Assembly (NCBI GenBank): GCA_047459655.1
Contig: JAJREF010000005.1
Coordinates: forward strand, 296,930 to 360,929
Reading direction: 5' to 3'
From: Rhabdochlamydiaceae bacterium
Lineage (GTDB): Bacteria > Chlamydiota > Chlamydiia > Chlamydiales > Rhabdochlamydiaceae
DNA: 64,000 bases
Below, in pieces: positions 22,153 to 22,981 of the stretch. A program made the translations under genes and the position numbers. Positions within the stretch are counted from its first letter, which is position 1, and every line of letters begins with the position of its first letter. The notes under the pieces are model-generated. The model did no database searches, had not been told where the DNA came from, and saw only the letters and a program-made list of their open reading frames with translations.

Positions 22153-22981
22153 AGACCTCTGCACAACTCTGGCAAATCGCTAAAATCGCGCTTTTTCTGC
22201 AGATTTTATTTTTCATAATCGAGTTAGGTGGGGCCTTACGGCCCCGACCTACGTGCGACCGGTATGTCGCTAAACTAGAGGGTGAAAGTCCCTTACGGGC
22301 TCTTGTAAGGAGAACCGTTAGAGAAGGCAAGGGTGTCCACCGCGAGGTGGAATCTGAAGAAAGCCGTATACAAAATGCTGACCTGACGAACAGGAAGCGC
22401 ATATGAGGCAGTGACTCTTGGATGAGAATGCGTAGAAATTCAAAGTCCAATACTTACATAGAAGGGTCCATGTAGATGCGACAGGCTAGCAGGAAAGTGT
22501 TGTGAATTACCCGGTGAGATCTGCATTCATGCCCGACTATTACCCGACACAAGAGGGGAACGACGGAGCTAGCGGAGTCTCTGAGAGATGCCGTGAAAGG
22601 TGCAGAAGTCAGCAGACGGCATAGTAATTCGTCGAAAGACGATGAAGGCCTGAACATGAAAACGAAGGGAAGAATCTAACCCTCTATGGGAACAAGGGTC
22701 ACAGAAACGAAAAGGCCAAAACAAAGGACTCAGGACGGAATCCTGTACCCCCTCTGTATGGTGTGATGGTTGACTGGACGGGAAAGAAATTCGAACCTAC
22801 CTGGCTGGGAAGGATACTGTTGATGCGATGCATACAACAACAGGACGATCGGCTAGGTCATAGTGATCATGAACCGCCGTATACGGTCCCGTACGTACGG
22901 TGGTGTGCGAGGACGGGAGCCTAATGGCTCCCTCCTACGCGATTCGATTTTTTGTTTTTCCACCGTTGTGCAGAGGCTTCT
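22153..22981. repeat. Palindromic element, family A (about 138 bp once the intron is removed), interrupted by the group II intron
   Basis: Ends AGACCTCTGCACAAC ... GTTGTGCAGAGGCTTCT; internal GC hairpin at 22218-22252 plus 22944-22948. Confidence 0.75.
22253..22943 (+). mobile_element. Group II intron, class IIC-like, lacking an RT ORF (691 nt)
   Basis: 5' GTGCG; domain V GAACCGCCGTATACGGTCCCGTACGTACGGTGGTGT (22871-22906, CGC triad); domain VI ending CCTACGCGAT; EBS1 loop GTAG (22472-22475) complementary to the upstream CTAC. Confidence 0.92.

Follow-up and report, generated by a model that had tools for sequence, protein, structure and literature searches.

A probably recently mobile, ORF-less group IIC intron with a retuned guide in a palindromic element of a Rhabdochlamydiaceae bacterium

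Group IIC introns have been described after terminators, other inverted repeats or attC sites (PMC1702495, PMC4424553, PMC8643678, PMC7161350, PMC3001079, PMC12584367; cited here and below from excerpts of the papers). Their hallmarks are a short domain V, a CGC triad and an EBS1-IBS1 pairing of 3-4 bp (PMC1702495); the O.i. EBS1, AUAA, pairs with UUAU (PMC3669008). The terminator-targeting members B.h.I1, O.i.I1, GsI-IIC and Ta.it.I1 share with the intron described here the short domain V with CGC, a 4-nt EBS1 combined with a 5′ stem-loop that replaces EBS2, and a likely single-base EBS3. In contrast to these, our intron has a guide, GUAG, that is not A-rich, occupies the arms of long palindromes rather than U-tracts, and contains no ORF. 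Group IIC-attC introns such as S.ma.I2 offer another parallel, being a IIC lineage in the palindromic site of a different mobile system (PMC3001079), but they keep to one fixed target class whereas the guide varies across the clade studied here. The ORF-less bacterial introns of Thermosynechococcus and Trichodesmium, served by an RT in trans, have likewise lost the RT ORF while a related RT intron resides in the genome (PMC4424553, PMC8643678, PMC12584367, PMC11754743). Such ORF-less introns nearly always co-occur with a related IEP in the same genome (PMC4424553), and those of class IIC have been used as HYER ribozymes (PMC11754743). In our case, unlike in those examples, the candidate helper is about 81% identical and carries a different guide. 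Our literature search, which does not establish absence from print, found no report of IIC introns whose guide directs them to GTAG repeats, to palindromes of MITE type or to domain VI.

We analysed a 64,000-nt stretch of DNA (the window; G000:C5:296930-360929) from a host assembly, G000, of 1.61 Mb in 5 contigs that is 81.6% complete. The intron site falls in a gap of 1.8 kb. On one side a minus-strand gene cluster, which we take to resemble a chlamydial type III secretion locus, ends at 21871; on the other a plus-strand ORF begins at 23705. Promoter-like sites near the intron numbered 6, against 3.9 ± 2.0 expected by chance. The features of the locus are as follows.

22153..22217, plus strand: left part (65 bp) of a palindromic, MITE-like element of family A, including its left terminal repeat, 61/65 identical to the full copy at G000:C1:313421
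22218..22252, minus strand: target hairpin, likely an antisense relic of domain VI (the 3′ end) of another group II intron, from its sequence and stem match
22249..22252, plus strand: IBS1, CTAC, immediately 5′ of the splice site; same bases at the copy on contig C3, and the complement of EBS1
22253..22943, plus strand: ORF-less group IIC intron, 691 nt, from Rfam matches, the identical copy and the 94% identical relative L160
22432..22435, plus strand: EBS1, GUAG, within a domain I terminal loop of 8 nt (22430-22437), from the Rfam D1D4-3 alignment, the hairpin fold and covariation
22472..22478, plus strand: conserved GUA-N-AUG motif, taken for EBS1 by the earlier reader, which lacks covariation with the 5′ exon; G22475 is likely EBS3
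22570..22650, plus strand: domains II-III, Rfam group-II-D1D4-1 match of 49.6 bits
22686..22863, plus strand: shortened domain IV, likely with remnants of both ends of an RT ORF that has been deleted
22872..22906, plus strand: short domain V with the CGC triad of class IIC, from the Intron_gpII alignment and the hallmarks excerpted from PMC1702495
22907..22943, plus strand: domain VI with a bulged A at 22937, plus the 3′ end, from the fold and motif positions
22944..22981, plus strand: right, decayed family-A end (38 bp) with its right terminal repeat, the +1 base being T, from alignment to the family-A right end

The original prediction had placed at this site a 691-nt intron devoid of an RT ORF, and both the Rfam matches and an identical second copy bear it out. 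Besides the match to domains II-III, group-II-D1D4-3 matched at 22336-22506 with 136.9 bits and Intron_gpII at 22872-22943 with 39.4 bits, slightly below its gathering score of 40; the 5′ GUGYG start and the domain V-VI 3′ end are both present. Folding of a 761-nt region beat 20/20 shuffles (z -4.9). In the open reading frame list the intron is free of an RT ORF, and about 1.24 kb is missing from its domain IV relative to the RT-bearing form. What is left there appears to retain traces of the protein: the ATG at 22686 aligns with the RT start of an RT-bearing relative on contig C1, the 3′ end of domain IV matches the last codons and stop region of the RT, and tblastn detected a weak similarity (29% over 38 aa, E 0.039). 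The window intron thus reads as a group IIC ribozyme that lost its RT ORF.

BLAST of the host genome revealed a second copy at G000:C3:40903-41593 that is 100% identical to the window intron. It, too, follows CTAC within the 3′ arm of a palindrome; this long palindrome belongs to a different repeat from the family A of the window, namely family B (163 bp, 12 loci). When the C3 copy is excised, the rejoined site equals three empty, near-identical copies of the family-B element, which proves both splice sites. The C3 copy lies in sense orientation 97 nt past the stop of a 446-aa ORF, and would be the likelier transcribed donor of the two. Both its target and that in the window are explained otherwise than as attC sites; no attC-like site, in whose bottom strand IIC-attC introns insert, and no integron came to notice. 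Families A and B alike are multi-copy and non-coding and have terminal inverted repeats, as MITEs do; among end pairs 600-3500 bp apart in this incomplete assembly we found no autonomous IS with family A or B ends. An insertion sequence split into three ORFs occupies the right end of one family-B element (L001 5915-7380), where it is flanked by a short duplication, and repeated 16-mers put it at about 10 copies.

Could the second copy be a DNA duplication or a misassembly, and the intron an immobile relic? Just two copies are known, and the assembly has split genes and differs by one base from contigs of a sequencing run. We nevertheless regard this as extremely improbable, for the identity ends exactly at both splice sites, the flanks of each copy rejoin to their own empty element, the EBS1 complement ends both sites, and both 3′ junctions were seen in run contigs. 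The two copies indicate a recent duplication through a splice-site-exact process. The exact 20-nt intron junction had 0 matches in metagenome contigs.

The run contigs came from a comparison in which 23 of 24 sequencing runs had a word share of at most 0.15; four runs were examined, all as contigs. Contigs of the run with 0.91 of the words, possibly the source sample itself and hence not independent of the assembly, span both flanks of the intron in the window and the 3′ junction of the C3 copy. They carry one extra G after 22582, and the true length of the intron may therefore be 692 rather than 691 nt. At 20556-21871 on the minus strand, one gene, which we assume from its resemblance to be that for the type III secretion ATPase, is read as two adjoining ORFs of 232 and 206 aa, and nearby genes also look split. 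Since assembly and run contigs differ by a one-base indel inside the intron, these splits are likely assembly errors.

The guide of the intron pairs with its target at all four positions (4/4) at both copies. To place EBS1, we drew on relatives gathered from sets of 61 and 401 genomes, of which 15 and 17 respectively had matches, counting G000, and from pattern scans. Over 25 rows of guide and flank, the tetramer at 22432-35 scored 85 against the last four exon bases, compared with 43.7 ± 4.6 for shuffled rows, none of 100,000 shuffles reaching that value; such counts overstate the case because the rows are related introns and 5/25 were found via GTAG or CTAC patterns, so it is the contrast between motifs that matters. 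Five rows were excluded: L185 and L198, with an unlocated 5′ end, L186 and L159, with a short flank, and L006, which the pattern did not match. Perfect pairs that had not been selected for include GGAA/TTCC, AAAG/CTTT, CTCC/GGAG, AAAC/GTTT, ATCG/CGAT, GGTT/AACC and GTAT/ATAC.

The original prediction had EBS1 in the conserved motif at 22472-75, which also reads GUAG. In the 23 rows readable for both motifs, 22432-35 scored 78.5 versus 40.0 ± 4.6 (0/50,000 shuffles), whereas 22472-75 scored 52.0 versus 51.8 ± 1.7, a value reached by 24,554 of 50,000 shuffles. Moreover, 11/15 introns with another guide have GTAG at 22472-75, and none of these 11 follows CTAC; we rejected this motif as EBS1. Thus, the predicted GUAG/CTAC pairing stands but its location does not, the two motifs sharing their letters by coincidence. 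EBS1 is best assigned to 22432-22435, where the guide covaries with targets across the clade. Guides vary: 14 different ones occur among 18 rows from this bacterial order. In a tree of 32 domain I segments, with 6/29 inner branches starred and the bootstrap unsettled, starred branches separate three GUAG-bearing groups, and the order inside the clade is unresolved.

The fourth base of the motif at 22472-75 behaved as a likely EBS3. In a hand-built table, a G at this position goes with +1 C or T in 10/11 mapped insertions, the exception being the C3 copy; the intron's own G faces T (a wobble) in the window and A (a mismatch) at C3. Where the position is A it pairs with +1 T (L006, L028), and T goes with +1 A in G462. 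Recognition is loose, as the metagenomic relative L160 follows CAAC (3/4) and the RT-bearing C1 intron, with the guide ACUG, also pairs at 3/4.

Excising the intron rejoins a 138-bp element and a hairpin of -17.9 kcal/mol as DNA, with the insertion point in the 3′ arm after CTAC. Restoration of an element of about this length with terminal inverted repeats and a hairpin had been predicted, as had insertion within the 3′ stem arm, and we found both, although the repeats are imperfect (a 12-bp shared core, with a 2-nt insertion on the right). For the two target hairpins, folding the upper stem as DNA gives -7.7 and -5.4 kcal/mol. The host genome has 21 family-A loci, 14 of them at least 149 bp long; the 35-bp middle hairpin is absent from all 20 other loci and its core occurs once in the genome.

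What, then, is this hairpin? At two mismatches or fewer it was found in 2/301 genomes, namely G000 itself and G118, there in domain VI of a group II intron (L034, Intron_gpII 49.1 bits); it is 91% identical to L034 positions 122-153, the match ending at the 3′ end of L034. The stem on its minus strand is shared with the domain VI found in IIC introns of G021, a genome of the same family as G000, and that match stops at the 3′ splice site, the exact point where family-A sequence resumes. The domain VI reading requires two extra bases, T and A, which can pair with each other. A sense reading was disfavoured, as the internal loop and the 3′ junction fit a natural domain VI on the minus strand. 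There is no domain V beside the hairpin, and none of the four matches in an RF00029 search of G000 lies there. From these likenesses the window hairpin is most likely a relic, an antisense domain VI of an older group II intron, and not a functional domain. That older intron would have inserted antisense into a family-A element; one deletion would then have taken out the element's middle together with all of that intron except domain VI, into which the present ORF-less intron inserted afterwards. The locus would thus consist of selfish DNA nested in three layers, and nothing points to a function for the host. It recalls bacterial and archaeal twintrons such as those of Methanosarcina acetivorans, where one group II intron lies inside the sequence of another (excerpts of PMC4424553), but the host in the window is an antisense domain VI relic only, and the Alicyclobacillus cases described below are hairpin-guided IIC insertions next to the branch A of the host intron.

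According to the original prediction, the target read on the other strand, GTAG followed by a hairpin, was the REP signature, and a non-autonomous ribozyme had specialised on one REP-like host repeat family. The minus strand of the target does begin with GTAG and a GC-rich stem, as in GTAG REPs with their RAYT transposases, and GUAG complements the GTAG tag of REPs. A different GUAG-guided IIC family sits exactly at the ends of GTAG-REP-like repeats (L162, L163), and an intron sister to ours, in G462, has 5/7 readable 5′ junctions in one repeat family. Other findings speak against this view. REPs are multi-copy and bear their tag unpaired beside the stem (excerpts of PMC3733652), whereas the core of the window target is single-copy, missing from the 20 other family-A loci, and has its GTAG paired in a long stem that matches domain VI. 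The hairpin had 0 copies in two same-genus genomes searched. No GTAG hairpin forms an abundant family in G000, whose commonest GTAG 16-mers reach only 15 and 10 copies and are not the target hairpin. We obtained no Y1_Tnp (PF01797) match in the 81.6% complete G000, while the control was positive in 6/14 genomes. The two intron copies occupy unrelated elements, and GUAG-guided relatives use a third family (G344) or, in the case of L160, a hairpin where a short ORF ends.

Indeed, the three outcomes that the original prediction had named in advance as speaking against it were all obtained: another copy in an unrelated family, B, empty family-A elements that lack the hairpin, and an EBS1 elsewhere. 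REP specialisation in the host genome is thus largely refuted, and specialisation on one REP-like family is very improbable as an account of the intron; the IIC ribozyme devoid of an RT and the RT-bearing relative in the same genome survive from that proposal. We conclude that the window holds a real IIC intron that lacks an ORF, has probably moved recently and has had its guide retuned, and that it is no REP specialist at this locus.

Altogether, readable 5′ flanks were available for eight GUAG-guided IIC insertions (the window relic, family B at C3, G344, L160, L162, L163 and two Alicyclobacillus domains VI); L159 and L161 had no usable 5′ flank. The G344 relative resides in a third palindromic family, after A and B, which gave at least 61 matches among the 40/142 candidates scored, and its rejoined site (TTAC, +1 C) was present in 3/3 empty copies inspected. 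The separate IIC family of L162 1-150 and L163 780-1638, with EBS1 GUAG, includes RT-bearing and ORF-less (668 nt) members, which sit at the exact CTAC end of the GTAG-REP-like repeats, one of them an inverted doublet; this likeness is by sequence, not copy number.

In Alicyclobacillus ferrooxydans and A. tolerans (L040 1821-3786, L165 1-1993), introns with EBS1 GUAG and EBS3 G each lie within the domain VI of a different host intron (L040/L164, L116/L165), in sense orientation, after CTAC, before C and one base past the branch A. In the same genome, a close sister whose EBS1 reads AAAU sits after terminators. This contrast, along with the domain-VI-like target in the window, raises the idea that the GUAG/G guide is adapted to parasitise other group II introns through the hairpin-CUAC-pyrimidine at the domain VI branch site, repeats being secondary. 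But the window relic fits antisense, so that the branch-site motif is not what was read there; the sites at C3, in G344 and of L160 do not derive from introns; the Alicyclobacillus pair, being nearly identical, counts as one lineage; and 200 other genomes of that class gave a single match, with EBS1 AUAA after a terminator-like hairpin. We therefore hold such an adaptation to be improbable, if slightly less so than REP specialisation, and prefer an opportunistic use of hairpins followed by CTAC. The related notion that the intron avoids itself, its own domain VI having CTAC and then a G that EBS3 G cannot pair with, was unsupported: relatives whose guides differ share the CTAC-G ending, and L159 and L164, both guided by GUAG, have an end that they could target themselves.

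Insertion into a 3′ arm is common in the clade whatever the guide, and some members follow ordinary terminators (G021, G031, G005). The G462 sister intron is 97% identical over the first 145 nt, and a guide GGGA was read on other contigs; its five junctions in one family (L250, L255, L256, L258, L260) fall in a palindrome of about 130 bp with 77 matches, and the number of independent loci is unsure because the junctions are contig ends of a fragmented assembly. That match count comes from a DNA search, a degenerate pattern for the repeat having been mis-specified (0/2 genomes). In G226, four 5′ junctions (L246, L249, L252, L254) all follow a repeated heptamer. A scan of the collection for CTAC-intron junctions returned at least 119 stretches, with 3 real IIC introns among the matches listed, and the pattern was too loose.

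How far the two host copies reveal a taste for repeats can be gauged from the available sites. G000 contains 269 hairpins of -4 kcal/mol or better followed by CTAC, 71 of them intergenic and 25/71 near short repeats as defined by a mask that covers 1.8% of the genome and misses the window site itself. Two hits out of two in repeats has p ~0.12 among the intergenic sites, which is compatible with opportunism and survival in harmless places. What survives is a weaker repeat preference, with both copies and the G344 relative in palindromic repeats and the G462 sister favouring one family, although with n=2 it does not go beyond chance.

A search for an RT-encoding parent, as the original prediction had proposed, did find an RT-bearing relative, a 1932-nt intron at G000:C1:701565-699634. 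It encodes an intact-looking RT of 471 aa (TIGR04416, 421 bits versus a cut-off of 300) that is closest to the GsI-IIC RT, its best PDB match with 470 bits, and to the RT of PDB 7uim. It is the sole RT match in the host assembly. Compared with the window intron, the C1 intron shows 81.5% identity in domains I-III and 96.7% in the final 92 nt. As a direct parent it was rejected, given that 81.5% identity and its different guide; L160 (93.8%) and L159 (84.3%) are closer. Its RT is a candidate helper of the window intron, and as the assembly is 81.6% complete the true helper may be missing from it.

The C1 intron is inserted after a hairpin downstream of a tRNA gene. Upstream of it, at L001 5585-5780, the tRNA 3′ end, terminator and target hairpin are tandemly duplicated, the first copy representing the 5′ exon without the intron, after which come about 55 unrelated bases. 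The 3′ flank of the C1 intron is the right half of another repeat family, so that its two flanks may derive from different sites.

The ORF-less form has relatives of its own. L160, from a metagenome contig, is ORF-less, 94% identical over 629 aligned nt, and has the same shortened domain IV, which also recurred in contigs from two further runs (one match of 217 nt showing 3 differences, another of 151 nt showing 2 differences plus 1 gap). The form is therefore a lineage and not a local accident. In related genomes we noted further shortened or ORF-less IIC derivatives (L188, L197, L190, L202, L291, L011; for example 696, 823 and 843 nt). ORF loss recurs within this IIC clade.

We consider it likely that the ORF-less intron, with two identical copies after CTAC in the 3′ arms of hairpins, moves by means of the RT of a related IIC intron. 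From what is known of IIC biology, a transcript through one copy would be spliced with the RT acting in trans, and the resulting RNP would recognise a short stem in single-stranded DNA together with four bases through EBS1 and one through EBS3. It would reverse-splice at a hairpin site where the upper stem forms and CTAC is free, and then be copied to DNA, perhaps primed at the replication fork as for endonuclease-less introns (excerpts of PMC4424553). Because CTAC can pair in the full palindrome at both targets, the RNP would presumably have to engage a target that is only partly folded, or else open the base of the stem. Retuning of the guide from the U-rich tails of terminators to CTAC would turn any hairpin plus CTAC into a target, and palindromic repeats would be hit since they supply many harmless intergenic sites of this kind.

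A broader and more tentative view, which we think possible yet on balance unlikely, is that the clade constitutes a naturally reprogrammable hairpin reader. Fast guide turnover would track abundant selfish palindromes of the hosts; GUAG/G would have arisen in several branches because hairpins followed by CTAC are richest in two places, the ends of GTAG REPs and the domain VI of other group II introns, so that these introns would live as parasites on parasites; and protein-less GUAG copies would spread between hosts with the RT of relatives that carry other guides.

With its many guides, matched flanks and empty alleles, and with EBS1 and EBS3 readable by covariation, the clade is a natural test set for target choice by IIC introns. 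What it suggests is a general rule, a hairpin plus 4-5 bases, that retuning can direct to repeats and to other introns and of which the textbook division between terminators and attC is the part in view. The locus also lets one ask whether an RT moves an 81%-identical ORF-less ribozyme with a different guide, and natural guide variants have a practical use for IIC-derived ribozyme tools.

Two further traces of introns exist elsewhere in the host genome. At L158 1501-1577 (G000:C1:598157-598233, minus strand) another group II intron has left a degenerate domain V-VI (20.8 bits), next to which lie fragments from two repeat families, and a second decayed intron 3′ end lies at G000:C1:294704-294741; the host genome thus once held other intron lineages. 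Finally, more palindromic repeat families with related terminal motifs are present in the window at 23164-23330, 42283-42448, 8856-8879 and 25364-25469.
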